DNA of 56,564 bases from Methanobacteriota archaeon (GTDB lineage Archaea > JAADCQ01 > Methanopyri > Methanopyrales > Methanopyraceae). The stretch lies in the NCBI GenBank assembly GCA_027064305.1, contig JAMOPY010000040.1, forward strand, positions 1 to 56,564. The letters run 5' to 3'. Every line of letters starts with the position of its first letter. Position 1 is the stretch's first letter. Of the stretch, positions 13,514 to 47,564 are shown piece after piece. The translations under genes and the position numbers were made by a program. The notes below the pieces were generated by a model. That model was not told where the DNA came from and made no database searches. It was given only the letters and a program-made list of their open reading frames with translations.

Positions 13514-14035
13514 CTAGGCCTTGCCTTGGGCGTGGGCGACGGCGTGGGGTAGTAGTTCGAGGAGGAGTTCGGCGCCGAGTTCGGCGGCGTGGGGGGAGCC
13601 GGGGAGGCAGGCGACGGGGGTTTGGTTCACGACGTACATCTCGGCGCGGGTGAGGGCGGCGTGGGCGCCGATCTCCTTCTCGGAGTGGCGGCGGAAGAGC
13701 TCGCCGAAGCCGGGGAGGCGTTTGTCGGCGATGCGTTCGAGGGCTTCGATGGTGGTGTCGGTGGGGGTGATGCCGGTGCCGCCGGTGGTGATGATGGCGT
13801 GGGCGCGTTCGGTGAGCCATTTGACGGCGCCGGTGATCATGTCGGGCTGGTCGGGGGTGAGGAGTCGGTAGCGGACCTCGTGGCCGGCTTCTTCGAGCTT
13901 TCGTTGGAGGGTGTCGCCGGAGGGGTCGTCGGGGTCGTCGCCGCGGGCGGCCTGTTCGAACTTGCTGGTGCTGATGGTGATGATGGCGAGGTGGAGGGTC
14001 TCGGGGGCGTGTTGTAGGTGTTCGTGGAGGGTCAG
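13514..14035 (-). CDS. moaB: Molybdenum cofactor biosynthesis protein MoaB/MogA; apparent CTG start
   Basis: IITISTS, DPSG, TTGGTGITPTD.T.EA, LPGFGELFR, LPGSPHA; no ATG/GTG/TTG near the 5' end. Confidence 0.9.
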   Translation of the reverse strand: MTLHEHLQHAPETLHLAIITISTSKFEQAARGDDPDDPSGDTLQRKLEEAGHEVRYRLLTPDQPDMITGAVKWLTERAHAIITTGGTGITPTDTTIEALERIADKRLPGFGELFRRHSEKEIGAHAALTRAEMYVVNQTPVACLPGSPHAAELGAELLLELLPHAVAHAQGKA

Positions 14036-14061
14036 GGTGGGGTCCCCCGTTGGTCTCGGGG

Positions 14062-15333
14062 TTAGCGTGTTCGTAGGAGGCGTTTGGCGAGGGGTTGGGC
14101 CCAGGTGGCTTCGAGGATGACGCTGAGGAGGATGGTGAGGAAGGTGGCGACGAGGATGGTGCCGGCGAGGGCGTGTGGGGGCATTTGTCGGGTGATGTGG
14201 GGTGGGAGTAGGTGGGGGTGGGTGGTGATCTTGGTGTAGACGGTGCCGACGAGGGCGGCGGGGACGACGCCGCGGGGGCCTTCGAGGGCCAGGTAGAGGC
14301 GCTCTTTCAGGGTGAGGGGTTCCTTGGGGGGCAGGTAGGTGCCGGCGAGGACGCCGAGGGGTCGGGCGAGGAAGATGTTGCCGAGGGCGCAGAGGAGTCC
14401 GCCGAGCCAGTATCGTTTCAGGAGTGGGAGGCTGACGCAGGCGCCGAGGGTGGTGAAGACGATGATGCGGACGACGGTGGAGAGTTCCTCCATGAAGCCT
14501 TTGAGGAATTGGAGGTCCTCTCGGAGGTGCTCGTGTTCGGTGAGTCGGTTGCCGATGTACATGCCCAGGATGGCCACGGCCATGAATCCGCTCAGTTCGT
14601 ACCCGGTGAGGTGGGGTATGGTTTCCTCGCAGAGGTACCAGGTGGCGAGGGCGGCGCCGAGGGTGATGGGGACGACGTACTCCTTGAAGGGTTCTCGGGC
14701 GAGGAGTTGTTCGAGTGCGGCGCCCGCGATCGCGCCGGCGGCGGCGCCGCCGGCGGCGAGGGAGAGGAAGAGGGCGATGGGGTTGTGGTGGGCTCCGATG
14801 CCGATGGTGGAGAGGGAGGTCTTGGTGAGTACGACGCCGAGTGGGTCGTTGAACACGCTCTCGGCGATGAGGGTGGTGGAGATCTCGGCGGGTAGGTCGA
14901 GCTTGGTGAAGACGGGGATGAGGGTGGCGGGGTCGGTGGCGCACGTGATGGCCCCGTAGAGGAAGCCGATGGGGCTGAGGGGGTTCACGTGGAAGGCGAG
15001 GTTGAAGATGAGGGAGGAGAGGGCGGCCGTGATGAGGAGGGTGATGAGGTCGAGCTTGGCGACGAGGGTGGCGACGCGGCGGAGGACGTCGATGCTGATC
15101 TCGAAGCCGCCGTCGAGGAGGATGATGATGAGTCCGACGGTGCCTAGGAAGGGGAAGATTTGCTGGGCGTGTTCGGGTCGGATGATGCCGGTGAGGGGAC
15201 CGAGGAGGAATCCGAGGAGGAGTAGGAAGGGGATGTCGGGGAGTCGGGCTTCCTCGGAGAGTCGGGCGACGATGGCGCCGAGGGTGAGTAGTAGGGCGGT
15301 GTAGCCGAGGAGGGTGAAGAACCCGAACTTCGT
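14062..15333 (-). CDS. nhaP: CPA1/NhaP-type Na+/H+ antiporter; apparent ACG start
   Basis: ATDPATLIP, ESVFNDP, GPRGVVPA; the frame stays open 115 codons upstream of the called GTG and includes LPDIPFLLLLGFLLGP and GLIIILLDGGF. Confidence 0.9.
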   Translation of the reverse strand, partial: TKFGFFTLLGYTALLLTLGAIVARLSEEARLPDIPFLLLLGFLLGPLTGIIRPEHAQQIFPFLGTVGLIIILLDGGFEISIDVLRRVATLVAKLDLITLLITAALSSLIFNLAFHVNPLSPIGFLYGAITCATDPATLIPVFTKLDLPAEISTTLIAESVFNDPLGVVLTKTSLSTIGIGAHHNPIALFLSLAAGGAAAGAIAGAALEQLLAREPFKEYVVPITLGAALATWYLCEETIPHLTGYELSGFMAVAILGMYIGNRLTEHEHLREDLQFLKGFMEELSTVVRIIVFTTLGACVSLPLLKRYWLGGLLCALGNIFLARPLGVLAGTYLPPKEPLTLKERLYLALEGPRGVVPAALVGTVYTKITTHPHLLPPHITRQMPPHALAGTILVATFLTILLSVILEATWAQPLAKRLLRTR

Positions 15334-15352
15334 CGGTGCTCCCCCCGCCGTT

Positions 15353-15916
15353 TTAGGCCTTGGTGCACAGTTTGGCGAAGTTCTTCAGGATGTCGGGGCC
15401 GTACTCGGTGTATTTGAGCTCGGGATGGAACTGGACGCCGTAGAGTGGGAGTTCACGGTGGCGCATGGCCTCGACCTCGCACTTGTCGGAGCGGGCGGTG
15501 ACGAGGAACTCGTCCGGGACCTCCTTGACCTCGTCGCGGTGTGAGGTCCAGGCGGTGATGCGGTCGGGGAGTCCCTCGAAGATGCCCTCGTGGTCGAGGA
15601 TTTCGATCTCGGTGCGGGCGTAGTCTTCGCGGCCGGCGGCCCAGTCGACCCGGCCGCCGAAGACCTCGGCCATGAGCTGATGGCCGAGGCAGATGCCGAG
15701 GATGGGGAGCTCGCCGGCGAGTTCTTCGATGATCTGGGGGGAGTTGCCGGCGCGGTCGCGGGAGGGGCCGCCGCTGATGATGACGCCGTCGGCGCGGCGG
15801 CGGATGTCGTCGGGGTCGGTGGTGTTGGGGACGATCTCGGCGGGGATGTTGAGGTAGTCGTAGTTCTTGCGGATGAGGTGGACGTACTGGCCGTGGTTGT
15901 CGACGATGAGGATCAA
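15353..15916 (-). CDS. guaAA: GMP synthase glutamine amidotransferase subunit
   Basis: VDNHGQY, ISGGP, PILGICLGHQL, SHRDEV, GVQFHPE. Confidence 0.95.
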   Translation of the reverse strand: MILIVDNHGQYVHLIRKNYDYLNIPAEIVPNTTDPDDIRRRADGVIISGGPSRDRAGNSPQIIEELAGELPILGICLGHQLMAEVFGGRVDWAAGREDYARTEIEILDHEGIFEGLPDRITAWTSHRDEVKEVPDEFLVTARSDKCEVEAMRHRELPLYGVQFHPELKYTEYGPDILKNFAKLCTKA

Positions 15917-15931
15917 GCGGGGGTGGGTCCC

Positions 15932-17158
15932 CTAGGCGAGTTCGACGTCGGAGCCGGCCATCTTGACGCCGGTGATGCGGGCGACGTCCTCGGAGAGGGC
16001 GCGGAGGTCCTCCTTCTCGAGGTTGTGCACGTCGGTCTTGCCGGCGAGTTGGGCGAGCATCTTACACTCCTCGGTGATGACCTTGAGGTAGTTGGCGACG
16101 CGTTCGGCGGCCTCGTCGACGTCGAGGTTCTTGCGGAGTTCGGGGTCCTGGGTGCAGATGCCCTTGGGGCACTTGCCGGTGTGGCACTGCATGCAGGCGG
16201 TGCAGCCCATGGCGATGAGGACGCCGGTGCAGACGTACACGGCGTCGGCGCCGAGGGCGAGGGCCTTGGCCACGTCGGCCCCGTCGCGGATGCCGCCGGA
16301 GATGATGATATCGACCTCGTCGCGGAGTCCGAGCTCGTTGAGGGCCTCGACGGCCTGGACGAGGGCTGCGATGGTGGGGATGCCGGCGTTCTCGGTGGCG
16401 ATCTCGGGGGAGGCGCCGGTCCCGCCCTGCATGCCGTCGATCGCGATGATGTCGGCGCCGGCCTTGGCCGCGATCTTGACGTCCTCCTTGACGCGGCCGG
16501 GGCTGTACTTGACGATGATCGGGACCTTCCAGTCGGTGATCTCGCGGAGCTGCTCGATTTTCATCTTGAGGTCCTCAGGCCCGACGATGTCCATGTGCCG
16601 GGCCGGGGAGAGCGCGTCGGTGCCCTCGGGGATGCCGCGGATCTCCGCGATCTCCTTGGTCACCTTTTCGCCCATGAGGTGGCCGCCCATGCCGGGCTTG
16701 GCGCCCTGTCCGATCTTGATCTCGATCGCGTCCGCGGCGTTGAGGTACTCGGCGGACACGCCGAAGCGGCCGGACGCGTACTGGGCGATGAGCCACTCGG
16801 CCTCCTCGCGCTCCTCGGGGAGCATGCCGCCCTCGCCGGTGTTGGTCGCGGTCCCGACCTTGGCGGTGCCTCGGGCGACCGCGATCTTGGCCTCCCGGCT
16901 CAGGGCGCCGAAGGACATCGCGCCGACGAGGACGGGCGTGTCCAGCTTGAGGGGCCGCTCGGCGAACCGGTCCCCGAGCACGGTCTTGGTCCGGCACGGC
17001 TCCCGGTACTTGTCGATGGGCGGGCGGGAGACCTGGGCGGGTACGATGACCAGGTCGTCGAAGTGCGGGACCTTGCGGCTCGTGCCGAACCCTCGGACCA
17101 CGTACTGCCCGGTCTCGGCCTTCTGCTGGATCTCCTTCACGTGGTCACGCCACCACAC
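15932..17158 (-). CDS. Archaeal glutamate synthase FMN-binding subunit
   Basis: AMSFGALS, NTGEGG, QYASGRFGV, EIKIGQGAKPGMGGHL, GCTACMQCHTGKCPKGICTQ. Confidence 0.95.
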   Translation of the reverse strand: MWWRDHVKEIQQKAETGQYVVRGFGTSRKVPHFDDLVIVPAQVSRPPIDKYREPCRTKTVLGDRFAERPLKLDTPVLVGAMSFGALSREAKIAVARGTAKVGTATNTGEGGMLPEEREEAEWLIAQYASGRFGVSAEYLNAADAIEIKIGQGAKPGMGGHLMGEKVTKEIAEIRGIPEGTDALSPARHMDIVGPEDLKMKIEQLREITDWKVPIIVKYSPGRVKEDVKIAAKAGADIIAIDGMQGGTGASPEIATENAGIPTIAALVQAVEALNELGLRDEVDIIISGGIRDGADVAKALALGADAVYVCTGVLIAMGCTACMQCHTGKCPKGICTQDPELRKNLDVDEAAERVANYLKVITEECKMLAQLAGKTDVHNLEKEDLRALSEDVARITGVKMAGSDVELA

Positions 17159-17311
17159 CCGCGGCCGCCCCCGGGGAGCGTTCCGCGTTCACCCGGGGGG
17201 AGGGTGTTTTAAACCGGTCGGGAGTCCTCGGGCCGGGGAGGAGCGCCCCGCGGGCCCGATCGCGACCACAGGTTTTTTAAGTCCGGTCCGGAGGGGGCGG
17301 GACCGGGGGGA

Positions 17312-17388
17312 GGCCCCGCAGTCTAGCCTGGATAGGACGCGGGCCTGCGGAGCCCGTAGCCCGGGTTCAAATCCCGGCGGGGCCACCA
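17312..17388 (+). tRNA. tRNA-Arg(GCG) with genomic C8 and encoded CCA
   Basis: GGCCCCG/CGGGGCC acceptor stem, anticodon GCG 17347-17349, TTCAAAT T-loop, C at position 8 (17319); TATA TTTTTTAA at 17273-17280. Confidence 0.97.
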
Positions 17389-17397
17389 GTCGGCGCA

Positions 17398-17418
17398 TCG
17401 TTACGATTATCGTAACTA
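17398..17418. repeat. 21-bp palindrome, copy 4 (TCGTTACG ATTAT CGTAACTA)
   Basis: 9 nt after the tRNA CCA; overlaps the rimI stop. Confidence 0.85.
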
Positions 17419-17895
17419 TTTTCGCAGCCGCTTGACCATGATGACGGCCGTCTCCCCGTCCTGGTAGTACCCCGGTTCCCGCCGCTCCACCCGGTACCCC
17501 AGCCGCTCGTAGAACCGGCGCGCGGGGAAGTTGGACTCCCGCACCTCCAGCCGCACCACGTCGCACCCGCGCTCCCGGATCCGGCGCTCCGCCTCCCGCA
17601 TGAGGATCGTGCCGATCCCGCACCGCCGGTGCTCCGGGTGTACGGCGATGGAGACGATGTGACCCTCGTTCAGCCACCTCCGGACCTCGAAGATGACGTA
17701 CCCGACCACGCGCCCGTGCACCTCCGCCACCAGGAAACCCTCCGGGTTGTTGGACAGGGTGTACAGGAAGACGTAGGTGGGGTAGGGGGACTTCGGGAAC
17801 GCCAGCTCCTCGATCTCGGTGATCTCGGGGATGTCCCGCCGGTGCGCCCGGCGCACCCGGACGCGACGTCCCCGGCGGTCCACGTACTCGATCAC
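17416..17895 (-). CDS. rimI: RimI/Ard1-like N-acetyltransferase
   Basis: GHIVSIAVHPEHRRCGIG, LEVRESN..A..FY..LGY, YYQDGE. Confidence 0.9.
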   Translation of the reverse strand: MIEYVDRRGRRVRVRRAHRRDIPEITEIEELAFPKSPYPTYVFLYTLSNNPEGFLVAEVHGRVVGYVIFEVRRWLNEGHIVSIAVHPEHRRCGIGTILMREAERRIRERGCDVVRLEVRESNFPARRFYERLGYRVERREPGYYQDGETAVIMVKRLRK

Positions 17896-18470
17896 TCCTT
17901 CCGGCAACGCTCCAACCACCATCGGCGCACGCGCTTCAGCAGGGTCTGGGCGCATCGGTCGCAGAAGTTCGGGGACTTCCGGTCCACGTGCATCACGGTG
18001 CTGGAAAAGCTCATCACGCACCGGGGATCGTCGCAGTGCTCCAGGCCGAAGGTGTGGCCGAGCTCGTGCGTGACCTCCTTCACGACCCGTTCCAGGTAGC
18101 GGTCTCGATCCTCGTCCAGCAGCCGGGCCACCGAGACCACGGCCTCACGGCCGTTCACTCGGGCCAGCCCGAAGATGAAGTTCAGCCCGGGCTCGTACAG
18201 GTCCTCGCGCGTGAGCCCTACGATCCGGTGGCACCGTCCGTCCACCTCGGTGAGCCGCTCGAGCAGGGCCTTCCCGAGGTACTGGCCGCGCGCCTCGGAG
18301 TACGCGTCCTCGGGCAGGCTCGCCCTGAGCTCCCGGATCTCCAGGGGCCCGAGGTACCGTCGAAGGTGCCGGGACAGCCGGTCCCGGATCTCGGGGAACC
18401 TCGGGATCGGTTCCCCCATCTCCACGAGCCCGAGGATCAGCCGGGACGTCCCGCCCCCGGTCATCTCCAC
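17892..18470 (-). CDS. amzA: Archaemetzincin zinc protease
   Basis: RGQY, LNFIFGLA, KEVTHELGHTFGLEHCDDPRCVMSFS...FCDRC. Confidence 0.93.
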   Translation of the reverse strand: MEMTGGGTSRLILGLVEMGEPIPRFPEIRDRLSRHLRRYLGPLEIRELRASLPEDAYSEARGQYLGKALLERLTEVDGRCHRIVGLTREDLYEPGLNFIFGLARVNGREAVVSVARLLDEDRDRYLERVVKEVTHELGHTFGLEHCDDPRCVMSFSSTVMHVDRKSPNFCDRCAQTLLKRVRRWWLERCRKE

Positions 18471-18695
18471 TCACCTCACGCGGCAGGTTAACACGACGGT
18501 GCCGACCATTAGGAGGAGGAAGCCCGCGAGCCCCATCACCCGGTCCCCTCCCCGGCGGGCGCAGATGATCACGTCGAGGGCTCCGACGAGGAGGGAGAGC
18601 ACTCCGAGGGGCCAGACGGGCCCGCCGAGGAGGGCGACGGCGAGCGCCGCGAGGAGGAGGATCGCGGAGATCCGGGCGATCCGGTTGAGGTCCAC
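18471..18695 (-). CDS. Small membrane protein (about 74 aa)
   Basis: GTG after GGGGGAGG; three hydrophobic segments; abuts amzA. Confidence 0.65.
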   Translation of the reverse strand: MDLNRIARISAILLLAALAVALLGGPVWPLGVLSLLVGALDVIICARRGGDRVMGLAGFLLLMVGTVVLTCRVR

Positions 18696-18708
18696 CCGGC
18701 CTCCCCCA

Positions 18709-18729
18709 TCGTTACGATTATCATAACGA
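18709..18729. repeat. 21-bp palindrome, copy 5 (TCGTTACG ATTAT CATAACGA)
   Basis: About 10 nt past the 5S rRNA 3' end. Confidence 0.85.
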
Positions 18730-18739
18730 TTTTCGGGGT

Positions 18740-18870
18740 GGACGGCGGCGGCATCCCGGGCTTCCCGCGCCCTCTCGGAGCGCAGTACCACCCGGGACGC
18801 GGCCGGGCTTAACTTCCGGGTTCGAGATGTGGCCCGGGTGTGGCCCCGGCCGCTGTGGCCGCCGCCGTCC
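18740..18870 (-). rRNA. rrf: 5S rRNA (stand-alone)
   Basis: Minus strand reads GGCGGCCACAGCGG...CACACCCGG...TCGAACCCGGAAGTTAAGCCC...GGTACTGCG..CCGAGAGG; 13-bp terminal stem; TATAAGTA upstream at about 18890-18897. Confidence 0.95.
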
Positions 18871-18907
18871 CCGCGCGTCCAACCCCGCCTACTTATAGTT
18901 TTCTCCC

Positions 18908-19678
18908 TCAGCGGTCGTAGAACTCCAGGGCGTTCTCGGCCGTGGTCTCCACGACCCTGCCGACCGGCTCCCCCTTCACCTCGGCCACGAGCTCCACGAT
19001 CCGCCAGACGTTCGCGGGCTCGTTCCGCCTCCCCCGCTCGGGCGAGAGGTACGGGCTGTCCGTCTCGGTCAGGGCGCGGTCCAGCGGCACGGACTCAAGC
19101 AGCCGTCGGGTGCGGTCGGTTGGGCCGCGGATGACGTGGATGGTGGAGAGGGAGACGTAGTGTCCCTCCTCCGCGATCCGCCGGGCGAGCTCCGGCGGGC
19201 CGTCGTAGCAGTGGAACATGGCGGTCACGTCGTGCTCCCTCAGGATCCGGAAGGCGTCCTCCTCCGCCTCCCGGGCGTGGATCACGACCGGCTTGTCGAG
19301 CTCCTCGGCGAGCCGGAGGAACCGCTCGAAGACCTCGCGCATGCGCTCGCGCTCCTTGGACCGTTTCACGTAGTGATAGTCCAGTCCGATCTCGCCGATC
19401 GCCGCCAGCTCGTCCGCGTGTTCCCGGATGAGTCGGACGATCTCGTCGATGGCCCGGTCCTGCATTCGGGGGGCCCGGGGCGGGTGCAGGCCGATCGTGG
19501 GGAACACGAAGCCCTCGAACCGGCGGGCCAGCTCGAGGGTGCGCCGGGCGGTGCCGGGGGTGACCCCGCAGTCGTACACGCGCAGGACCCGCTCCCGGGC
19601 GCGTTCGACGACCTCGTCCACGTCCCTCCGGAAGTGGTCGAAGCAGAGGTGGCAGTGGGCGTCCACGGGCCGGTTCAA
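18908..19678 (-). CDS. tatD: TatD-family deoxyribonuclease
   Basis: DAHCH, GLHP, AIGEIGLDY, IHAREA, FHCY, ETDSPYL. Confidence 0.93.
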   Translation of the reverse strand: MNRPVDAHCHLCFDHFRRDVDEVVERARERVLRVYDCGVTPGTARRTLELARRFEGFVFPTIGLHPPRAPRMQDRAIDEIVRLIREHADELAAIGEIGLDYHYVKRSKERERMREVFERFLRLAEELDKPVVIHAREAEEDAFRILREHDVTAMFHCYDGPPELARRIAEEGHYVSLSTIHVIRGPTDRTRRLLESVPLDRALTETDSPYLSPERGRRNEPANVWRIVELVAEVKGEPVGRVVETTAENALEFYDR

Positions 19679-19691
19679 GCCGGGAGCCCCC

Positions 19692-19751
19692 GGTCAGCGA
19701 AAGGGCTGGCTCCTCATCGGCCTCGGGTAGGGAGGGCCTGCATCATCCCGA
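19692..19751 (-). ncRNA. Box C/D sRNA
   Basis: C GGGATGA (19749-19743), D' CCGA, C' CCGATGA, D CTGA (19697-19694); target not identified in the window. Confidence 0.8.
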
Positions 19752-19808
19752 GGCGCGGGGTGTTACCCAGAAAAGCCCCTTCGGTGCGCGCACCCGGGGG
19801 CCGTCGTC

Positions 19809-20297
19809 ATGGAGGATGGTGAGAAGCGGCGGATCCTGTCGGTGCTCGTGCGGGATCGTCCGGGGGTCATGCAGCGGGTCTCCGGCCTGTTCCGGCGGCG
19901 AGGGTTCAACATCGACTCGATCGCGGAGGGACCGTCGGAGCGGGAGGGGCTGGCGCGGATGACGCTCACGGTGCGCGGGGACGAGCGGACCATCGAGCAG
20001 GTCGTGAAGCAGCTTAACAAGCTTGTCGACGTGATCAAGGTCTCGGAGCTGGACCCGGAGCGCACGGTGGAGCGGCAGCTGGCGCTGGTGAAAATTAAGA
20101 CGAGGGACCGGGCGAGGGCGGCCGAGCTGGCGCGGGCGGCGGGCGCCGAGGTGGTGGACGTGGGGCGCGAGACGATCACGGTGGAGATCGTGGGAGAGCC
20201 GCGGGACGTGGAGTCGCTCCTGGAGCTCATGAACGACATCGGCAGCGTCGTGGAGATCGCGAGAACCGGGATCGTGGCGATGGAGCGGGAGTCCTGA
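19809..20297 (+). CDS. ilvN: Acetolactate synthase small (regulatory) subunit
   Basis: LSVLVRDRPGVMQRVSGLFRRRGFNIDS, EQVVKQLNKLVDV, EIARTG. Confidence 0.95.
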   Translation: MEDGEKRRILSVLVRDRPGVMQRVSGLFRRRGFNIDSIAEGPSEREGLARMTLTVRGDERTIEQVVKQLNKLVDVIKVSELDPERTVERQLALVKIKTRDRARAAELARAAGAEVVDVGRETITVEIVGEPRDVESLLELMNDIGSVVEIARTGIVAMERES

Positions 20298-20299
20298 GC

Positions 20300-22174
20300 T
20301 CAGCGTCCGAACCGCGGCCGCTCGCTGAGCCGCATCGGCGCGGTCAGCGGCACCCGCGGCTTGCCCTCCGTCTCCCGCTCGAGCCGCTCGACGAGCTCCT
20401 CGAGCGTCATCTCCACCCGCTTCTGCTCCTTGAGCGTTGACTCCTCCCGGATCGTCACCGACAGCGTGCCCTTCTCCACCTCCTCCTCTCCGATAACCAC
20501 CACGTAGGGTACCCACTCCTTGCCCGCGTCCCTGATCTTCCTGCCCACCGGCTCGTCCCGGTCGTCCAGATCGACCCGGAACCCCTCCTCCCGCAGCCGC
20601 TCGGCCACCTTCTCCGCCTCGTCCAGCACCTTCTCGGACACCGGGATCACCCGCACCTGCACGGGGGACAGCCAGGTCGGCAGCGTGGGCAGCCGACCCT
20701 CCCGTTCGAACCGCTTCTGCTGGTGCTCGAGCAGCGCGCAGATCACCCGCTCCAGGCTGCCGGTGGGTGAACAGTGCAGGATCACCGGGTGCCGCTCCTC
20801 CCCGGACTCGTCCGCGAACGTGATGTCGAACCGCTCCCCGCTCTCCACGTCGATCTGCACGGTCGGGTTCTCGATGGGCCGGCCCAGGCTGTCGATGAAC
20901 GCGAAGTCCACCTTGCACTCCCAGTAGTGCTTCCGCTCGGAGAGCACCTCCACGAGGATTGGCTTGGAGTCCCCGTACACCTCCTCCACGGCCTCGGCCA
21001 GCCCCTCGAGCACCTCGGGTCGCTCGTCCAGGAAGTCCTCCGTGACCCGCAGCACGACCTCGTACTCCAGCCCCAGCTCCCGCCCCACCTCCAGGCACAG
21101 CCTCGCCTGCTCCAGGAACTCCTCCACCGCCTGGTCCATGTCGGCGCACACCGTGTGCAGGTCCGGCATCGTGAACGCCCGCAGTCGCTTCAGCCCGACC
21201 ACCTCGCCGCTCTGCTCCAGCCGGAAGCTCTGCGACAGCTCGTACACCTTGAACGGCAGGTGCCGTCGGCTCAGCGTCGTGTCGGCGAGCAGCCGGAACG
21301 CCCCGAAGCAGGCCGCGTACCGGAGCATCAGCGCCCGGTTGCCCGCCCGCAGCCGGTACTGCCGCTCGCCGAACCGGTCCGCGTGCTCCCGGATCGCCTC
21401 CTCGCCCAGGTCGTACATAACCGGCGTCTCCACCACCGCCGCGCCCATCCCCGCCATCAGGTCCTCCACGTACTCCGCCAGGCACCGTCGGATCACGTGC
21501 CCGTACGGGTACCAGCGCACGTGACCCACGTCCGCCGCCGGCTCGTGATCGCAGATCCCCTTCTCCCGCATCAACCGCACGTGGGCCGGCTCCTCCCCGC
21601 CCGACTCCCGCTCCTCGCCCAGCTCGTGCAGCACCAGCCGTCGGAAGTCCTCGGGGCACTCCGACAGGTCCACCTCCTCCACGTCCCTCAGCTCACCGTC
21701 CACGTACACCATGAACGACGACTCGACCTCCCGCTCCTCCCCCGCCTCGGCCGCCTCCGGGGTGACCGTGCGGGACAGCTCCGAGAGCGGGTGCCCCTTG
21801 CAGGCCAGCCGGAACGCCTTGTACCAGCCGAAGGGGGCGCGCACCACCTCGTACCCACGCTCCCGCAGGAGCTCCTCCATCCTCCTCAGCACCTCGACGG
21901 CCACGTCCGGGGAGGCCAGATCCTCCGCGAGGTGCGCGTACGGGTACAGGACGATCCGATCCACCTTCAGCTCGCCGGCGACGTCCTCCACCTCCCGCAC
22001 GGCCGCCTCGGCGACCGCCTCCGGGTCCTCCTCGTCGACCTCCTGCACCGCCGCGAACACGACCAGGCAGTCCTCCACCTCCGCCTCCTTCGTCGGCGGC
22101 TCCTCCTCCGCGATCCCGGTCCTCTGCCGCGCCTCGAACGCCATCTCGTCCGCGTGAATGAGCAGCATCCTCAC
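20300..22174 (-). CDS. thrS: Threonine--tRNA ligase, archaeal type with editing domain
   Basis: MRMLLIHAD, YPYAHL, APFGWYK, CKGHPLSELSR, LRYAACFG, PDLHT, LHCSPTGSLER. Confidence 0.97.
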   Translation of the reverse strand: MRMLLIHADEMAFEARQRTGIAEEEPPTKEAEVEDCLVVFAAVQEVDEEDPEAVAEAAVREVEDVAGELKVDRIVLYPYAHLAEDLASPDVAVEVLRRMEELLRERGYEVVRAPFGWYKAFRLACKGHPLSELSRTVTPEAAEAGEEREVESSFMVYVDGELRDVEEVDLSECPEDFRRLVLHELGEERESGGEEPAHVRLMREKGICDHEPAADVGHVRWYPYGHVIRRCLAEYVEDLMAGMGAAVVETPVMYDLGEEAIREHADRFGERQYRLRAGNRALMLRYAACFGAFRLLADTTLSRRHLPFKVYELSQSFRLEQSGEVVGLKRLRAFTMPDLHTVCADMDQAVEEFLEQARLCLEVGRELGLEYEVVLRVTEDFLDERPEVLEGLAEAVEEVYGDSKPILVEVLSERKHYWECKVDFAFIDSLGRPIENPTVQIDVESGERFDITFADESGEERHPVILHCSPTGSLERVICALLEHQQKRFEREGRLPTLPTWLSPVQVRVIPVSEKVLDEAEKVAERLREEGFRVDLDDRDEPVGRKIRDAGKEWVPYVVVIGEEEVEKGTLSVTIREESTLKEQKRVEMTLEELVERLERETEGKPRVPLTAPMRLSERPRFGR

Positions 22175-22289
22175 CCGGCGAGCCCCGGGCCGGGTCCCCG
22201 ACCCCAGCTGATAGCATCATCGGCCTCGGGTGCAGAAAGGAAACGCCAACGTTCACGGACGTGACCGACGGGCGCGCCCGCTTAAAAAC

Positions 22290-22309: not shown

Positions 22310-22360
22310 CGATCCACGCTTAACCGGAGCGCGCGATGCACCGTGCGGGGTGCCCAACTC

Positions 22361-37303: not shown

Positions 37304-37317
37304 TACGCCGGGCGGGC

Positions 37318-38777: not shown

Positions 38778-38952
38778 CGCCCCGATCCCCCGGACACCCC
38801 GCGCCCGCTCCAGGTATATCACCACCGGGAGCCGCGAGTGAACCGAGACGCTACTCGCCCCGAGGATGAAAACGGATAACTGCGATTCGCCCCGCGCCGC
38901 CGTCCTCCCGTATATAAACCGGGCGGGGGACGGATCCCCCGGGGTAGCCCGC

Positions 38953-40008: not shown

Positions 40009-40106
40009 CCCCCTCCACGCCCCCACCCCCTACTTCCATTCGACCTACTTCTACTCGAAAAAATACAAAGATCCCGGAGCAGGCGGTCACCGCGGGCCAC
40101 CGCGGC

Positions 40107-40556
40107 TTGCCCGTGTGGATGTCCGTGAAGCCCCGGTACGCCGACCTAATTCTGGACGGGCTGAAGACGGTCGAGGTGCGCCGGTGGCTGCCCACCACCA
40201 TCGCGAACGAGGACACGTGCGTGGTGTACGCCTCCAGCCCCACCAAGGCGGTCCTGGGCGAGGTCCGGATTGAAGGGATCCGCCGGGTGCGCGTGGACGA
40301 CAACCTGGACGAGCTCGCCGCCGCGGCCCGAGCGTCCCCCAGGGAGCTCCGGGAGTACCTCGACGGCAGGGACCACGCCTACCTGATCGAGCTCTCCAAC
40401 CCCAGGCGGTACCCGGAGCCGGTCCCGCTGCGGGAGCTGAAGCGGATCGTCCGGCGCGAGCTGGACCGCGAGTTCCACCCCAACCCGCTGTTCCGGATCG
40501 ACTACGAGCTGCTCAACGCGGTTCGCTCCGCCGCCGGCCTCCGCGTCTCGCTTTGA
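40107..40556 (+). CDS. ASCH/PUA-like domain protein
   Basis: MSVKPRYADLILDGLKTVEVRR, VYASSP..AVLGE, Y..PVPL. Confidence 0.85.
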   Translation: MPVWMSVKPRYADLILDGLKTVEVRRWLPTTIANEDTCVVYASSPTKAVLGEVRIEGIRRVRVDDNLDELAAAARASPRELREYLDGRDHAYLIELSNPRRYPEPVPLRELKRIVRRELDREFHPNPLFRIDYELLNAVRSAAGLRVSL

Positions 40557-40896
40557 TCAGCTCGAGCACCCGCCGCTTCTCCTCCTCGTCCTCCTCCAAC
40601 CGCTCGGCACCCCTCAGGATGCTCCCCTCGCCCACCCTCCTTACCTCGCGCAGCAGCAGCCTCGCCACCTCCTCCCGATGCACCAGGTCGCAGTTCTGGC
40701 AGCCCCACACCCGGGACCCGTTTCGGGACCGCACCCACTCACCCAGGTCCTCGTCCAGGCACGGGTACAGCGGGCAGAAGCACCAGGTGCAGTCCTGCCC
40801 CTCGAAGTGGCACGGGTAGTACTCGCAGTCCCTCCTCGGGCCGAGCGGCTCGCGCACGTCCTCCTCGTCCAGCCGCTCGAAGTACTCCCGGGCCAT
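40513..40896 (-). CDS. Cysteine-rich small-domain (zf-like) protein
   Basis: CEYYPCHFEGQDCTWCFCPLYPC...WGCQNCDLVH. Confidence 0.85.
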   Translation of the reverse strand: MAREYFERLDEEDVREPLGPRRDCEYYPCHFEGQDCTWCFCPLYPCLDEDLGEWVRSRNGSRVWGCQNCDLVHREEVARLLLREVRRVGEGSILRGAERLEEDEEEKRRVLELIKARRGGRRRSEPR

Positions 40897-40968
40897 GGGG
40901 TGCACGCGGCGCTCCCCCGATCGACACGGTAATATCTCGATCCGCAGCCGGGGTCGGGGGGATCCGAC

Positions 40969-41403
40969 TTGTTCAAAACGATCATGATCCCGACCGACGG
41001 GTCCGAGAACTCGAAGCGGGCGGCCGAGGTGGGGATCCGGCTCGCGAAGGAGTTCGACGCCAAGATCGTCGCCGTGCACGTGATCCCGCTCTGGAGCCCG
41101 CTGGGCACGAAACCCTCCTACGAGCTGCCCGAGGAGCTCGTGGAGGAGGCGGAGAGGGTGGTGAACGAGGTCTGCGAGATGGCCGAGGAGGAGGGGGTGG
41201 AGGCGGAGCCGGTCGTCGTGGAGTCCCCGTCCATCGTCCAGGGGATCGTGGAGGAGGCGCAGGACCGGGACGTGGACCTAATCGTGATGGGGACGCGGGG
41301 CCTGACCGGGGTGAAGGGATTCGTGCTGGGCAGCACGACGAAGGGGGTCATCGCCCGGGCCCCGTGCCCGGTGCTGGCCGTGCCTCCGGAGGAGTCGGAG
41401 TGA
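40969..41403 (+). CDS. Universal stress protein
   Basis: IMIPTDGSE, DLIVMGTRGLTG...LGSTT, PCPVL. Confidence 0.95.
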   Translation: MFKTIMIPTDGSENSKRAAEVGIRLAKEFDAKIVAVHVIPLWSPLGTKPSYELPEELVEEAERVVNEVCEMAEEEGVEAEPVVVESPSIVQGIVEEAQDRDVDLIVMGTRGLTGVKGFVLGSTTKGVIARAPCPVLAVPPEESE

Positions 41404-43341
41404 TCAGCCCCCTCGCTCCTCCACCCCCACCAGCCCGTACCCCACGTACACGAGCTTGTCCGGGGCGAGCGCGTCGATCACCTCCGACCGGTGCGTGATG
41501 ATGATCGCCGTGATCCCCAGCTCCCGGCACATCTCGGAGAAGCTGCGCGCCACCCGCATCGACGTCTTCGGGTCCAGGTGCGAGCAGAACTCGTCGATCA
41601 CGATCAGGTTCGCGCCCTCCGCGATCATCCGGGCCAGCCGGACCCGCTCCTTCTGACCCGGGGACAGGCGCTCGTAGGGGCTGCGGTACAGGACCGCGTC
41701 CGAGATCCCCGACCGGTTGAGGATCTCCACGGCCAGGTGCACGTCGCCCGTGACGGACACCAGGTCCTCGATGATGGTCACGCCCGGGTTGATGTCCGGC
41801 TCCACCTCACCCGGGATCATCGCCGCCAGCCGGGTGTTGTCGGGGAGCTCCACCCTCCCCTTGTCCGGCCGGTACATCTCCTCGACGAGCTCGCGCACGA
41901 CCTCCTCCGGCGTGGTGCCCATCGAGTAGAGGGCCCGCGACACGATGGGCGAGGAGAGCTTCCGGAGCAGCTCCCGCCGGATGGACTCCAGGAACTCATC
42001 GTGCGCGCCCATGATCATGCGTACGAGCGTCGTCTTGCCCGCCCCGCTGGGCCCCACGATCACCGCCAGCTCGCCCGGCTCCACCTCGAGGTTCACGTCC
42101 TGCAGCGCGTACTGCTGGATGCGCCGGTGCAGGACGCCGAACGCCTCCAACAGCTCCACGATCTCCCGGGGCAGCCCCTTCACGTCCAGCTCGGCCGTGA
42201 ACATCTTGTGCAGGCCCTTGACCCGGATTGGCCCCTCCAGCGGCTCCACCTCGAGCCGCTTCAGCCGGGATCGGTACAGCCGGCCCCCGTGCCGGCGCGC
42301 CAGCCGGTCCGACCGTAGGAACTCGGCGATCGCGCGCTTGGCCTCCCGCGTGAGCGGTTTCACCAGGTACGGCCGGCCCGAGCCCGTGTCCCAGAGGTAG
42401 ATGAAGCCGACGCTCTCGAAGATGGGGTGGTACCGGGCCATCTGCGCGATCACCTCGATCAGGTGCTTCTCCGCCTTCATCTCCGGCACGCGCGCCTCCC
42501 GGACCCACTCCACCGCCGCCCGGACCGCCGTGCGCCCGATCCCGTCCGCCCGGTACTCGGGGTGCACGACCACCCGGGCGATCCGCGCCGCGCGCGTGTC
42601 GCACCGGTGCAGGATCTCCTCCAGCGTCTTGCCCCGCTCCGGCTCGAACGTGGGGTGGAACCAGTCCTCGGAGAACACCTTCTCCCGGATGTTCCGCTCC
42701 ACGTCCCCGTCCAGCCGCCGGTTCAGCTTCGGGATGGGCGGGTCCACGCGCACGTACGCGACGATGTCCGGCTCGTACTCCTCCCCGTTGACCAGCTCCA
42801 GCACCATGAAGCGGGACGCGGGCAGCGAGCCCCGGATCGCCCGCAGCTCAACCCGCTCGGACCCGCACTTGGGGCACTCCTCCGGGCGGACGTTGGAGCG
42901 GATGACCTTCCCGCACTCCCGGCACGCCCAGATCGCCACCACGTCCTTCTCCGAGGCGTAGTGGTACTGCTCCAGGCTGACGATGTACTCGAAGTCCTCC
43001 CGGTAGATCGCCTCCCGGGCCCGGAGCTCGTACCGGTAGATCTCCCGGCCCAGCACGTCCGTGCGCTCCACGGTCAGCTCGGTCTCGAACGGGGGCCAGA
43101 CGCGCACCCACTCGCCCTCGTACTCCCGCTCCACGACCACGTCGTCCTCCTCGAGCGCGTCCACCTCCTCCCCCTCGGCGCCCCGGACGCGCACCCTCGT
43201 GCCCCGGGTCAGCCAGCCGGCGATCGTGCCGGGCAGGCGCAGGGTGACCCGCTCGCCCTCCTCCGTCTCGAGGACGACCCGACCCTCCCAGTAGTTTAAT
43301 CGCCGGCGCTTGAAGTCGTTCCTGACGGTACCAACGATCAA
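41404..43341 (-). CDS. GNAT acetyltransferase fused to an ABC-type ATPase, with zinc ribbon
   Basis: LEQYHY, CRECG..CPKCG, RIARVVVHPEYRADGIG, GPSGAGKTT, LSPGQKER, IDEF. Confidence 0.88.
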   Translation of the reverse strand: MIVGTVRNDFKRRRLNYWEGRVVLETEEGERVTLRLPGTIAGWLTRGTRVRVRGAEGEEVDALEEDDVVVEREYEGEWVRVWPPFETELTVERTDVLGREIYRYELRAREAIYREDFEYIVSLEQYHYASEKDVVAIWACRECGKVIRSNVRPEECPKCGSERVELRAIRGSLPASRFMVLELVNGEEYEPDIVAYVRVDPPIPKLNRRLDGDVERNIREKVFSEDWFHPTFEPERGKTLEEILHRCDTRAARIARVVVHPEYRADGIGRTAVRAAVEWVREARVPEMKAEKHLIEVIAQMARYHPIFESVGFIYLWDTGSGRPYLVKPLTREAKRAIAEFLRSDRLARRHGGRLYRSRLKRLEVEPLEGPIRVKGLHKMFTAELDVKGLPREIVELLEAFGVLHRRIQQYALQDVNLEVEPGELAVIVGPSGAGKTTLVRMIMGAHDEFLESIRRELLRKLSSPIVSRALYSMGTTPEEVVRELVEEMYRPDKGRVELPDNTRLAAMIPGEVEPDINPGVTIIEDLVSVTGDVHLAVEILNRSGISDAVLYRSPYERLSPGQKERVRLARMIAEGANLIVIDEFCSHLDPKTSMRVARSFSEMCRELGITAIIITHRSEVIDALAPDKLVYVGYGLVGVEERGG

Positions 43342-43366
43342 GGACGGCACCCCGGAGGTAGCGGGC

Positions 43367-44089
43367 TTGGAGATCCGGGTGGTCCTGGTCGAGCCCAAGT
43401 ACGATGGGAACGTGGGCCACGTGGCCCGGGTGATGAAGAACTTCGGGGTGAAGGAGCTTTTCCTCGTCCGACCCCGGGCCGAGCTCGGTGAGGTCTCGAT
43501 CGCCCGGGCGATGCACGCGGTGGACGTGCTGGAGCGCGCCCGGATCGTGAGCACGCTGGAGGAGGCCCTCGAGGACGTGGAGGCCGCCGTGGCCACCACC
43601 GCCGTGCTCGGCTCGACCCCCGCCCGGAACCCGCTGACCCCCTGGGAGGCCCGAGAGCAGCTCGCCGACCACGGGAAGGTCGCGCTGGTCTTCGGACCCG
43701 AGGACCGGGGCCTCCGCACGTGGGAGATCGAACTGTGCGACGCGACCGTGTTCATCCCCACCAGCGAGGAGTACCGCTCGATGAACCTGTCCCACGCCGT
43801 GGCCGTGCTCCTGTACGAGCTCACGAAGGACGAGCACGTGCCGGAGCGCTACGGCCGACCCGCGACCAAGCGGGAGAAGGAGGTGCTCGTGGGCGCGCTC
43901 GATCGGCTCATGCGCGCCCTCGGGATCGATGAGGTGCGTCGGGGGAACGTGCGAACGACGTTCCGTCGCTTCCTGGCCCGGGCCCGCTGCACCGACAAGG
44001 AGGTGAAGGCCCTGCTGTGGATCCTGGAGAAGGCCCGAAGGAGGGTGGAGGGGTACTCCCGCTCCGGCGACCCGGGGGGAGACCCGTGA
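43367..44089 (+). CDS. trmJ: TrmJ/YjtD SPOUT tRNA methyltransferase
   Basis: VVLVEPKYDGNVGHVARVMKNFG, VFGPEDRGL, IPTSEEYRSMNLSHAV; TTG after GGAGGT. Confidence 0.93.
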   Translation: MEIRVVLVEPKYDGNVGHVARVMKNFGVKELFLVRPRAELGEVSIARAMHAVDVLERARIVSTLEEALEDVEAAVATTAVLGSTPARNPLTPWEAREQLADHGKVALVFGPEDRGLRTWEIELCDATVFIPTSEEYRSMNLSHAVAVLLYELTKDEHVPERYGRPATKREKEVLVGALDRLMRALGIDEVRRGNVRTTFRRFLARARCTDKEVKALLWILEKARRRVEGYSRSGDPGGDP

Positions 44090-45183
44090 ACGTGGACTCC
44101 TCGATCCTCACGAACCTGATCTACATCATCCTCTCGTTCCTGGTGTTCTGGATCCTGGCGCAGCTCTACTACCGGTGGCTGCTCGTTCGGAGGATCCAGG
44201 GGGAGATCGACGAGATCTCCCGGATCGACGAGCGGGTCCAGGAGATCGTCGTCTCCCGGGCCCGGTGCGACCGGGACGAGGCCCGGACCATCGTCAAGCG
44301 CGCCGCGAACATGTTCATCGTGCAGCCCGTGCAGCTCGACCCGCACGGGATCATCGAGCGGCTGGAGAACCTCGTGGAGCGCAGCGAGGACAAGCTCCGT
44401 TCCTACGCCCGGATCCTGACCGGGAAGCGGAAGGGCGCGGACGTGGACAACATGAGCAAGGCCCTCAGCTGCGTGCTCACCATCCACGCCCTCACCCAGT
44501 ACCTCCGGCACCTCCTCCTCTCGGCCAAGAAGACGAACAACCTGCAGCTCCTCCTGCTCCTCACCATGGTCCTGCCCGAGCTCAAGCAGTACATCAAGAG
44601 CAACTACGAGGGCGCCAAGGCCTTTCTCGACTGCGTCCCCATCGGCGACAGCGTCGGCCCCATGGTCGCCGCCCGATTGATCGGGGACGCCGAGACGCGG
44701 GAGATCGAGCGGGACACCGTGGCGGCGGAGCGCGAGTACAAGGGGCGCCGCCTGGTCATCGTCAAGGCGAACGGCCCGGGCGGTAACCTGGGTCGACTGG
44801 GCCGCGCGGTCCGTCGGCTGGTGCGGGAGTACGGGGACGTGGCCAAGATCATCACCATCGACGCCGCCCTGAAGCTGGAGGGCGAGCGGACGGGGAAGGT
44901 GAGCGAGGGCGTGGGCGTCGCGATGGGCGACCCGGGGCACGAGAGCTACAAAATCGAGCAGATCGCCGCGGAAGAGGGGATCGACCTCGACGCGGTCGCG
45001 ATCAAGATGAGCGCGACCGAGGCCGTCACCCCGATGCCGAAGCCCGTGGTCGACGCCGTGGAGGAGGCCGCGAAGCGCGCGCTCCGGCTCGCCGAGGAGG
45101 CCCCCGAGGGCTCCACCGTCATCATCGTGGGCGTGGGGAACACCGTCGGCGTCCCGAACAACCGACCGTACACCGGGGGGTGA
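44086..45183 (+). CDS. DUF1512-family membrane-anchored protein
   Basis: PVQLDPHG, PIGDSVGP, KANGPG, IDAALKLEGE.TG.V.EGVGVAMG, GVGNTVG. Confidence 0.8.
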   Translation: MNVDSSILTNLIYIILSFLVFWILAQLYYRWLLVRRIQGEIDEISRIDERVQEIVVSRARCDRDEARTIVKRAANMFIVQPVQLDPHGIIERLENLVERSEDKLRSYARILTGKRKGADVDNMSKALSCVLTIHALTQYLRHLLLSAKKTNNLQLLLLLTMVLPELKQYIKSNYEGAKAFLDCVPIGDSVGPMVAARLIGDAETREIERDTVAAEREYKGRRLVIVKANGPGGNLGRLGRAVRRLVREYGDVAKIITIDAALKLEGERTGKVSEGVGVAMGDPGHESYKIEQIAAEEGIDLDAVAIKMSATEAVTPMPKPVVDAVEEAAKRALRLAEEAPEGSTVIIVGVGNTVGVPNNRPYTGG

Positions 45184-45190
45184 GCGCCGG

Positions 45191-46258
45191 CTGATCTGCC
45201 ACCGGTGCGGGCGCGAGGCGACCACGCTCATCGAGGGGCTGTGCCCCGAGTGCTTCCTCGAGGAGCACCCGATGATCCGGGTGCCGGAGGACCTGGAGGT
45301 GCGGGTCTGCGCCCAGTGCCTCAGCCGTCACACCGGGCTCCGCTGGGAGCACCCGCCCGGGGACGCGGAGGACGTCGAGTCCCTGCTCATCGAGTACGCC
45401 CTCCGCGCCCTGGAGGACGAGATGCGGGTCCTTCAGGGGGCCCGGGTGGACGTCCGGCCCCTGGAGGTCAAGGGCGAGCCGGGCGGCCCCGGCTCCCGCG
45501 TGCAGGTCGCGTTCCTGGTCGAGGGCGAGTGGGAGGTGGAGGGGGAGCGACTCCGCCGGGAGTATCACCTTAAGGTCCCGGTCACGTTCACCCTCTGCCA
45601 CCGGTGCATGAAGTACCGGTCCGGGTTCTACGAGGCCATCCTGCAGGTGCGCTCCTTCCGCGGCGGGCTCACGGAGTCCGAGCGGAAGGAGCTGGAGGAG
45701 TTCGTGACGCGGTCCGCGGAGTCCCTGCTCAAGCGCGACCCGATGGCCTTCATCTCGGACGTGAAGCACCGGGACGAGGGCATCGACTTCTACCTCGGCT
45801 CGACCAGCGCCGCCCGGAAGCTGGCCCGACGCCTCGTCGACCGGTTCGGCGGGACCGTGCGGGAGTCCCACGAGCTGGTCGGCGTCGACAAGGACACGGG
45901 CAAGCGGCGCTACCGCACGTCCATCTCCGTGCGGCTCCCACACCTCCGGCCCGGGGACGTGATCGAGCTCGAGGGCGCCCCGTACGAGGTCACGGGCGTG
46001 GGCGAGCGCTGCACCCTCCGCCGCCTGACGGACGGGACCCGGGTCCGCCGGGACTGGGAGGAGCTCGCGGAGGCCCGGCGCCTCAAGCCCGAGCCTGCCA
46101 TCGTCGTGAACACCGACCCGCCCCAGGTCGTGCTGGAGCGCACGGGCGAGACCCTCGACTGCTTCGACACCGGGGCCCTCGACGGGTTAGAAATAGGGCG
46201 GCGGGTGACGGTCGTCGTCCTGGACGAGGGCGCCGTGGTCCTACCCGAGGAGGACTGA
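45191..46258 (+). CDS. nmd3: Nmd3-family ribosome biogenesis protein; apparent CTG start
   Basis: CHRC...GLCPEC upstream of the first ATG, CAQC, CHRC, YEAILQVR, GIDFYLGS, LVGVD. Confidence 0.9.
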   Translation: MICHRCGREATTLIEGLCPECFLEEHPMIRVPEDLEVRVCAQCLSRHTGLRWEHPPGDAEDVESLLIEYALRALEDEMRVLQGARVDVRPLEVKGEPGGPGSRVQVAFLVEGEWEVEGERLRREYHLKVPVTFTLCHRCMKYRSGFYEAILQVRSFRGGLTESERKELEEFVTRSAESLLKRDPMAFISDVKHRDEGIDFYLGSTSAARKLARRLVDRFGGTVRESHELVGVDKDTGKRRYRTSISVRLPHLRPGDVIELEGAPYEVTGVGERCTLRRLTDGTRVRRDWEELAEARRLKPEPAIVVNTDPPQVVLERTGETLDCFDTGALDGLEIGRRVTVVVLDEGAVVLPEED

Positions 46259-46271
46259 CGGGGGGCGCGCC

Positions 46272-47243
46272 ATGGCGGAGGACGCCTGGGAGCTCGTCAC
46301 GCGCAACGCCGTCGAGATCGTCACGGAGGAGGAGCTCCGCCGGATACTCGAGGAGAAGGACGAGCCCGTCGCCTACGTCGGGTTCGAGCCCTCGGGCGAC
46401 ATCCACCTCGGGCACAAGCTCGTGATCGACAAGATGGTGGACCTCCAGCGGGCCGGGTTTCGGGTGATCATCCTGCTCGCCGACCTGCACGCGTACCTGA
46501 ACGAGAAGGGCTCCCTCGAGGAGGTGCGGGAGCTGGCCGAGTACAACAAGCGCTGCTTCACGGCCCTCGGCCTCGACCCCAAGCGCACGGAGTTCGTCCT
46601 CGGCTCCGAGTTCCAGCTCGAGGAGGACTACGCCCTCGACGTGTACCGCATGGCCCGCCACACGACCATGCGCCGCGCCCGCCGGAGCATGGACATGATC
46701 GCCCGCCGCGAGGAGAACCCACCCGTCTCCCAGGCCGTCTACCCGCTCATGCAGGCGCTCGACATCGTGCACCTCAACGTGGACCTCGCCGTGGGCGGCC
46801 TCGAGCAGCGGAAGATCCACATGCTCGCCCGGGACGTCCTGCCCAAGCTCGGCTACGACGCCCCCACCTGCCTGCACACCCCCATCATCCACGGGCTCGA
46901 CGGCGAGGAGAAGATGTCCTCGAGCAAGGGGAACTACATCGCCGTGAACGACGACCCCGAGACCATCCGCGAGAAGCTCCGGCGGGCCTACTGCCCGGCG
47001 GGCGAGGCCGAGGGCAACCCCGTCCTCGAGATCTACCGGTACTTCATCTTCCGCGAGTACGACGAGGTCACGATCGAGCGCCCCGAGAAGTACGGCGGGG
47101 ACGTGACCTACACCAGCTACGAGGAGCTCGAGCGCGACTTCGTCAACGAGGACCTCCACCCGCTCGACCTCAAGGAGAACGCCGCCCGGTACCTCGCCGA
47201 GATCCTCGAACCCGTGCGCAAGGCCGTGGGCACCCCCTCCTGA
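46272..47243 (+). CDS. tyrS: Tyrosine--tRNA ligase
   Basis: [39 protein letters not shown]. Confidence 0.98.
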
Positions 47244-47258
47244 CGGGGGCCCACCCCC

Positions 47259-47564
47259 TCGCGCCTCCGCGGCCGGCTCCTCCTCCGCGACCTGCCCCCG
47301 CCCCTCCGCGACGGTCCCCTCTGGGAGGGCGGACCCCGCGGCTTCCGCGCCCGCGCCCGCGTCGACGCGGACCGCGTGGAACTCACCTTCCGGGCCCGGA
47401 GCCCGGCCAAGGCCGCGTCGGGACTGGACGCGGTGCTCGCCTGCGTCCGCGTTTCCGAGGAACTACTTAACCTGGTACGGGAACGATCGGCCCGGGGTGA
47501 TCCCGGTGGGCAAGCGCATCGACGACGAGACCCTGAAGAAGATCCGGCTGCCCAAGGAGGGTGA
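47259..47564 (+). CDS. Probable KEOPS subunit Pcc1-like protein; start and stop uncertain
   Basis: Frame open from 47244: [12 protein letters not shown]...[39 protein letters not shown] resembles the Pcc1 pattern; fills the gap between tyrS and aIF-1A. Confidence 0.5.

Follow-up and report, generated by a model that had tools for sequence, protein, structure and literature searches.

Near-cognate start codons behind strong Shine-Dalgarno motifs in Methanopyrus: relaxed initiation or mRNA editing?

Do archaeal genes whose start position holds a codon other than ATG, GTG or TTG begin there, with the codon read as encoded, or is the codon repaired in the mRNA? The question is raised by a 56,564-nucleotide stretch of DNA (the window; contig JAMOPY010000040.1 of assembly GCA_027064305.1), in which four genes, moaB-like, nhaP-like, nmd3 and pcc1-like, seem to start at CTG, ACG, CTG and TCG. 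The original prediction had named C-to-U editing, relaxed initiation driven by the Shine-Dalgarno (SD) motif and T-to-C mutation pressure as possible explanations. We compared the genome to which the window belongs as contig C40 (G000; 1.21 Mb, 70% GC, 89% complete) with five genomes of the same genus, G001-G005, of which G002 has 61% GC. Among named proteins, those nearest to the window's carry the label Methanopyrus or Methanopyri, and the archaeon is a thermophilic methane producer. Relaxed, SD-led initiation by the normal initiator tRNA is very probably the answer, and the census, the codon spectrum and the conservation described below support it.

Four proposed starts in the window

All four proposed starts were confirmed where they had been predicted, each with a G-rich SD motif upstream at the genome's own spacing.

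12715..12724, + strand: anti-SD sequence GATCACCTCC, 3' end of the 16S rRNA gene
13514..14035, - strand: moaB-like gene (MoCF_biosynth; Pfam PF00994), 173 codons, start CTG at 14035-14033
14044..14048, - strand: SD of the moaB-like gene, GGGGG, spacing 8
14062..15333, - strand: gene of an nhaP-like Na+/H+ exchanger (Pfam PF00999), 423 codons, start ACG at 15333-15331
15341..15346, - strand: SD of the nhaP-like gene, GGGGGG, spacing 7-8
45176..45183, + strand: SD of nmd3, GGGGGTGA, spacing 10, the TGA within it being the stop of the upstream gene
45191..46258, + strand: nmd3, 355 codons, start CTG at 45191-45193, Pfam PF04981 match from residue 3
47245..47249, + strand: SD of the pcc1-like gene, GGGGG, spacing 9
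47259..47564, + strand: small Pcc1/Pcc2-like gene, start TCG at 47259-47261, conserved part about 76 codons, tail overlapping the aIF1A gene

The reference spacing of 7-10 nucleotides (nt), counted from the U of GGUGA, was learned from the ATG, GTG and TTG starts of G000, which peak there, and each motif, whether a G run or GGGGGTGA, is able to pair with the 16S end. None of the four G000 sites offers a usable canonical start in frame, the next one lying 27-115 codons downstream. For the moaB-like gene the closest in-frame canonical codons are a GTG at -303 and an ATG at +65, with none between; the relatives have CTG (G003) or TTG (G001, G002 and G004) at the start, and G005 gave no match. The nhaP-like frame has a stop at -18 and its earliest GTG at +115. 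This gene is present in two of the five relatives, and ACG-AAG-TTC-GG stands behind a G run in G000, G003 and G002.

The nmd3 frame has a stop at -61, and its earliest ATG, at +27, would remove the N-terminal CxxC. In G001, G002, G003 and G005 the CTG occupies the same codon, in G004 the next higher one; it is immediately preceded in G001 and G002 by an in-frame TAG and followed by Ile-Cys-His-Arg-Cys, where the Pfam model begins. Outgroup Nmd3 proteins start just ahead of the same CxxC, and in the G007 family the start is ATG at both loci that could be read (2 of 4). Among seven Methanopyrus-like Nmd3 entries in the databases, five are without the first CxxC and one more begins a codon too late; the NCBI protein of Methanopyrus sp. 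SNP6 (P0123) already begins MICHRCG, that is, at the proposed position.

The pcc1-like frame has a stop at -6 and its earliest GTG at +39, and its start is TCG in G000, G001, G002 and G005, ACG in G003 and TTG in G004. The original prediction gave 47486 as its end point, where we find a CGA codon and no stop; the frame runs on to the stop at 47562-47564. Editing of this CGA (47484-47486) into a stop was rejected, the tails of the relatives differing in length and ending in true stops. The protein has no Pfam match and does not reach the cut-off of the Pcc1 family; the Pcc1 of this genome that exceeds the cut-off sits at C30:30355. Comparison with Pcc1/Pcc2 gave PDB 7A67 as the best match (residues 2-73, E-value 0.093), an Atlas value of 0.80 to Pcc1 clusters and an hhalign probability of 30%, and the gene may be a Pcc2 paralogue. 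Its neighbours are tyrS on one side and aIF1A-RIO1 on the other; in G000, 68 bases of its frame are shared with aIF1A. The genuine Pcc1 gene (C30:30346) starts with TTG in G000, CTG in G003, GTG in G002 and TTG in G004, and start codons are labile in both genes for KEOPS small subunits.

The same or swapped codons in the relatives exclude sequencing error and purely local mutation at the four sites.

A genome-wide census of start codons

For the census, G000 genes were paired by BLAST with all of G002 and with 693 kb of G003; 87 of the 1350 G000-G002 pairs were dropped for frame, and the final set held 1183 anchored gene pairs, 420 of them strict. Three things entered the score of a start: an SD model that had learned from canonical starts, the coding potential and the homology. 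All non-canonical codons were treated alike (codon-blind), and as a decoy control the true start was forbidden in 336 canonical genes. The strict set of G000 comprises 362 canonical starts (GTG 151, TTG 126, ATG 85) and 58 others. ATG is thus the rarest of the three canonical starts, and these interchange freely, 104 of 212 aligned starts differing between G000 and G002.

Once the 21 non-canonical calls with a canonical codon within two codons had been removed from the 58, 37 remained: CTG 14 (1.3 expected), ATC 8 (1.0), ATT 3 (0.12), ACG 3 (0.8), TCG 2 (0.75), TTA 1 and six singles. Codons with a middle purine, NRG, occurred once against 8.6 expected. Near-cognate codons thus make up 31 of the 37 calls, compared with 26 and 37 of 336 decoy picks, and the class fixed a priori, CTG plus ATH (ATC, ATT, ATA), makes up 25 of 37, compared with 7 of 336. 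In G002, 26 of 38 non-canonical calls are near-cognate (CTG 9, ATC 8, ACG 3, TCG 3, TTA 2, ATT 1). A harsher filter, which tolerates no canonical codon within -15 to +4, gives near-cognate shares of 19/24 in G000 and 11/19 in G002, with ATH at 5 against 0.77 expected. CTG and ATH hold up whichever filter is applied, whereas ACG and TCG are weaker under the harsher one. Judged from these calls, near-cognate codons appear to open 19-31 of the 420 strictly called SD-led starts of G000 (4.5-7.4%), or about one gene in 15-20.

Where a relative has a canonical start, 28 codons stand opposite it: CTG 15, TCG 6, ATC 3, and ACG, TTA, TCC and ACC once each. Twenty-two of these are C-for-T variants, and TCG is enriched over the decoys (6/28 vs 22/672, p = 5e-4). 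At two loci, dapF at C29:5275 and C34:4273, G000 and G003 have TCG in common where G002 has ATG. Start sites also retain rare codons across three genomes (ATT/ATT/ATT at one, ATA/TTA/ATA at another), with ATT and ATA accounting for 2.8% and 1.3% of Ile codons in G000. The genes concerned include ABCE1 (ATC), trpS (ATC/ATA), mcrC (ACG/TCG), argD (CTG) and uppS (TTA). No functional theme emerged among the 45 candidate genes, 27 of which are NCBIfam-named and spread over translation, transport and metabolism. In G000, near-cognate starts adjoin an upstream stop more often than canonical ones do (19/31 vs 140/362, p = 0.02).

Several other census designs were discarded. Simply counting the in-frame codons that follow SDs showed enrichment for ATG, GTG and TTG only (CTG 29 vs 29.7), an approach powerless to detect a class at the level of a few per cent. 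An initial swap census, with only 3 and 5 cases, counted a GTG inside the SD as an alternative start. Anchoring on BLAST starts over-extended genes upstream, scored SD glycines as conserved, and took in selenoprotein TGA and rRNA frames. Free expectation-maximization spread noise across many codons, and the codon-blind version with decoys was used instead. Two conserved SD-led genes of G000, C10:4626 (CCC/ATC) and C5:688 (CTG/CTC), show neither a canonical start nor a near-cognate one whose place is clear. Separately, in-frame TGA codons conserved with G002 lie inside aligned proteins at C33:5966, C32:1930, C7:16245 and C1:26214 of G000, as expected for selenoproteins, and the genome has a tRNA-Sec at C42:1622-1713.

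Editing, decay and other explanations

In plant organelles, C-to-U editing creates AUG starts from ACG. A deaminase, CDAT8 or another, might likewise convert C to U in the mRNA start codons of Methanopyrus and so produce AUG or UUG in all molecules or a minority. What is shared with such systems is a set of C8 tRNA genes, a deaminase gene and some starts that lie one C-to-U step from AUG or UUG. G000 encodes a full-length homologue (C37:2408-1572, E-value 7.8e-125) of PDB 3G8Q, which we take to be CDAT8, and its tRNA genes mostly carry C8, as does the one in the window for which this had been claimed:

17312..17388, + strand: tRNA-Arg(GCG) gene, C at position 8 (17319)

In Methanopyrus, CDAT8 is reported to edit tRNA C8 to U (PMC3695527). 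A context-selective deaminase could also yield the swap spectrum, with its 22 C-for-T codons among 28, its common TCG and its absent GCG.

The RNA evidence comes from four runs (two samples, one study) placed on 20 kb of the relative G002; the contigs give the majority form only, and differences were judged among the 32 of 190 pieces listed. The nmd3 CTG is bridged by two RNA contigs (X7 record 15, X8 record 22), which keep the C and show no other letters, and the pcc1-like TCG by one (X8 record 21), which also keeps it; the bridging contigs are of one sample, at depth 9-14. Neither X9 nor X10 bridges the nmd3 C: these runs stop at distances of 5 and 0 letters. Among the pieces listed no G>A difference was found in the 20 kb, and poly(T) contig ends at several places point to sense-strand RNA. 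Contigs drop minority variants, and editing of a minority of start codons may still occur. The tRNA control was not seen edited: the C8 of tRNA-Ala is covered only by a long contig that enters from upstream, with C. Edited tRNA reads are reported to begin at +1 (PMC3695527), and position 8 would therefore be too close to a contig end for listing. Three differences at 1957-1963 were rejected as editing, as they match the other tRNA-Ala. Six DNA runs contain every word sampled from the nmd3 locus of G002, but as they may be the source of that DNA they were not counted.

The census speaks against editing as well. The starts are not limited to C-for-T variants, as the editing reading had led one to ask: ATC, ATT and TTA account for 8, 3 and 1 of the 37 calls in G000, and ATC, ATT, ATA and TTA lie beyond C-to-U repair to AUG, GUG or UUG. 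Inside genes no editing signature is seen. Within the genus, 93,333 well-conserved columns show 1 Leu/Ser, 2 Phe/Ser, 21 Leu/Pro and 16 Arg/Trp exchanges, C/T exchanges (877) are well below A/G exchanges (2908), and CGA, CAG and CAA are not favoured opposite stops. The substrate described for CDAT8, moreover, is folded tRNA, whose acceptor stem must be matured and whose T arm must be present (PMC3695527). Editing of archaeal mRNA is an unlikely reading here, and as the source of these starts it is scarcely credible.

The original prediction placed all four genes on C-rich coding strands, which holds for the moaB-like and nhaP-like genes (third-position C 0.78) and not for nmd3 (0.52 C, 0.45 G) or the pcc1-like gene (0.49 and 0.26). 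Near-cognate genes are slightly C-richer than others (median four-fold C 0.45 vs 0.40, p = 0.01), and 5 of 31 exceed a four-fold C of 0.7, against 47 of 1131 (p = 0.01); the other 26 of the 31 are not in C-rich domains, and G002 has many of these starts too. CTG, TCG and ACG each arise by one T-to-C step from TTG or ATG, 22 of the 28 codons opposite canonical starts are C-for-T variants, and the genes are slightly C-richer, which makes mutation pressure a likely supplier of near-cognate codons. It is not a sufficient explanation, because G002, at 61% GC, has the nmd3 CTG, the nhaP ACG and the pcc1-like TCG as well. As a separate observation, four-fold sites in the window show an extreme strand bias that is mirrored around the 16S rRNA gene (6000-10000 and 13000-17200), with up to 0.93-0.94 C on the + strand to its left and on the - strand to its right, independently of gene direction; such C-rich strand domains recur on other G000 contigs, are fewer in G003 and hardly occur in G002.

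Mutation might instead have destroyed the start codons, so that translation begins elsewhere (at a downstream ATG or GTG, at a GTG in the SD, or by read-through or frameshift) or the genes are weakly expressed relics. Such decay would fit the canonical codon found within -15 to +4 in 34 of the 58 non-canonical calls, the in-frame ATG at -5 of the G002 nhaP gene, the C-rich strand domain around the moaB-like and nhaP-like genes together with the slight C-richness of near-cognate genes, and the shortened Nmd3 forms of 327-341 amino acids in databases. It is improbable all the same: at the four sites the next canonical codon lies 27-115 codons downstream of conserved sequence, the nmd3 CTG of G001 and G002 directly follows a stop, outgroup Nmd3 proteins start, like this one, just ahead of the N-terminal CxxC, and the codon spectrum is far from the decoy picks. 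Initiation by another tRNA, such as tRNA-Ile(GAU) at AUC and AUU or an initiator with a modified anticodon (inosine at A35) that reads NCG, would draw on the GGG-CCC anticodon stem that tRNA-Ile(GAU) and the elongator CAU tRNA also possess and on the TCG and ACG found at start positions. G-C-rich stems are, however, general among these tRNAs, aIF2 is reported to select the Met group together with A1-U72 (PMC6412873), a pair present in the initiator alone, and no single non-initiator tRNA can cover CUG, AUH, NCG and UUA together, which makes this explanation highly improbable. A tRNA-Pro gene whose anticodon loop is interrupted by a short, intron-like insert was encountered at C16:7181-7273 and C17:1-93 of G000 and at C1:1499268-1499359 of G002.

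Probable relaxed initiation, a possible role of aIF1, and known systems

In relaxed SD-led initiation, the 30S subunit would be positioned by a strong SD, made of G runs or of a GGGGUGA that pairs with the 16S end GAUCACCUCC, often just after it has completed the upstream gene of an operon. The ordinary Met-tRNAi would then pair with a near-cognate codon 7-10 nt on, CUG, AUC/AUU/AUA or ACG and less often the two-mismatch UCG or UUA, and the mRNA would be read as encoded. We infer that ribosomes start at these codons with Met. Transitions from TTG and ATG, aided by GC pressure, would supply the codons, and selection would tolerate them even in nmd3, ABCE1, trpS and mcrC.

The initiator tRNA is ordinary (A1-U72, CAU anticodon, three G-C pairs). 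The initiation factor aIF1 is not. Its gene was found in all 31 genomes searched; in the six genomes of the genus its loop 1 reads QVRPGK or QPRPGK, with Pro at the position of Pyrococcus abyssi Y32. Of 23 other archaea, 22 have an aromatic residue there and one has a gap (in two further genomes the locus is cut or missing); the best 120 of 1177 homologues include 117 others, every one of them aromatic at this position. The change amounts to (K/R)R(Y/F/W)GK becoming (V/P)RPGK. In published work aIF1 discriminates against non-canonical starts, loop-1 residues R31, Y32 and K34 bind the 30S subunit and mRNA, and in P. abyssi the Y32A variant of aIF1 lost its synergy with mRNA binding (PMC6237735). 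The genus-wide loop-1 change is a candidate cause that could weaken start-codon proofreading, a suggestion we regard as tentative, somewhat short of even. It is possible, if a little more doubtful, that Methanopyrus is a natural low-stringency lineage, in which an aIF1 loop 1 minus its aromatic and one basic residue would permit routine SD-placed starts, including UCG and UUA in essential genes, with the start chosen mainly by the SD.

Several points weigh against relaxed initiation or its extent. Every start is called from sequence. The harsher filter removes 34 of the 58 non-canonical calls, and some candidates have an in-frame GTG inside the SD; the ATG of the G002 nhaP gene stands in front of the SD. 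Under that filter ACG and TCG are marginal (G000 4 vs 1.0; G002 1 vs 0.83), and the C-free codons (ATT, ATA, TTA, GTA) are not significant by themselves (2 vs 0.67). The near-cognate class was partly defined after the data had been seen (ACG, TCG, TTA), which inflates those tests. GCG is absent from the 28 swaps, and simple pairing rules do not explain this. The enrichment next to upstream stops is not significant in G002 (12/26 vs 125/366, p = 0.29). The census itself errs: it puts the start of G000 nmd3 at the CGG a codon too early and leaves out the pcc1-like gene, and its rates cover genomes of the genus Methanopyrus alone. The link to aIF1, finally, would be one coincidence in one lineage.

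E. coli infC starts with AUU. Feedback of the infC type is not seen here, the fidelity factor aIF1 starting at ATG in all six genomes of the genus. SD-led near-cognate initiation in bacteria shares the strong SD and a codon one base from AUG or UUG, and the features by which it is recognized are present in the window and beyond it: SD spacing, a codon where homologues have Met or a canonical start (the 28 swaps genome-wide) and no usable canonical start (the four G000 sites). In E. coli, AUA, AUC, AUU and CUG are reported to initiate at 1-2% of AUG and other codons at 0.1-1%, with N-terminal Met, and ATG, GTG and TTG make up more than 99.9% of annotated bacterial starts, an annotation-dependent figure (10.1101/063800); likewise annotation-dependent, 6 of about 800 start switches were to CUG or AUU (PMC5622118). 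The share of about 4.5-7.4% of strictly called starts differs from these bacterial figures. NCBI table 11 lists CTG, ATT, ATC and ATA as alternatives; the ACG, TCG and TTA of Methanopyrus are outside it. In archaea, L12ae of Staphylothermus marinus is reported to begin with ATC (PMC2678158), and this case and the SNP6 Nmd3 share a homology-defined non-canonical start in an essential gene; they are isolated genes or silent annotation, whereas here there is a genome-wide set. The part of a 2020 review consulted names only AUG, GUG and UUG as archaeal starts (PMC7531240), and our literature search, which left out most subscription papers and supplements, found no paper on Methanopyrus start codons. 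A further comparison is with eIF1/aIF1 proofreading and the yeast Sui- mutants: aIF1 discriminates against non-canonical starts, and here the change is natural and genus-wide, Pro at the Y32 position with Val or Pro at the preceding basic position, and its effect is only predicted.

What differs from known cases is the frequency of such starts and the use of ACG, TCG and TTA. Gene callers restricted to ATG, GTG and TTG would shorten about one in 15-20 genes of the genus, and the known range of archaeal starts would grow by a genomic UCG conserved from species to species. The Y32P change of aIF1 offers a direct test of how far archaeal start fidelity depends on aIF1 as against the SD. If Methanopyrus is indeed a low-stringency lineage, it would be a natural counterpart of the yeast Sui- mutants.

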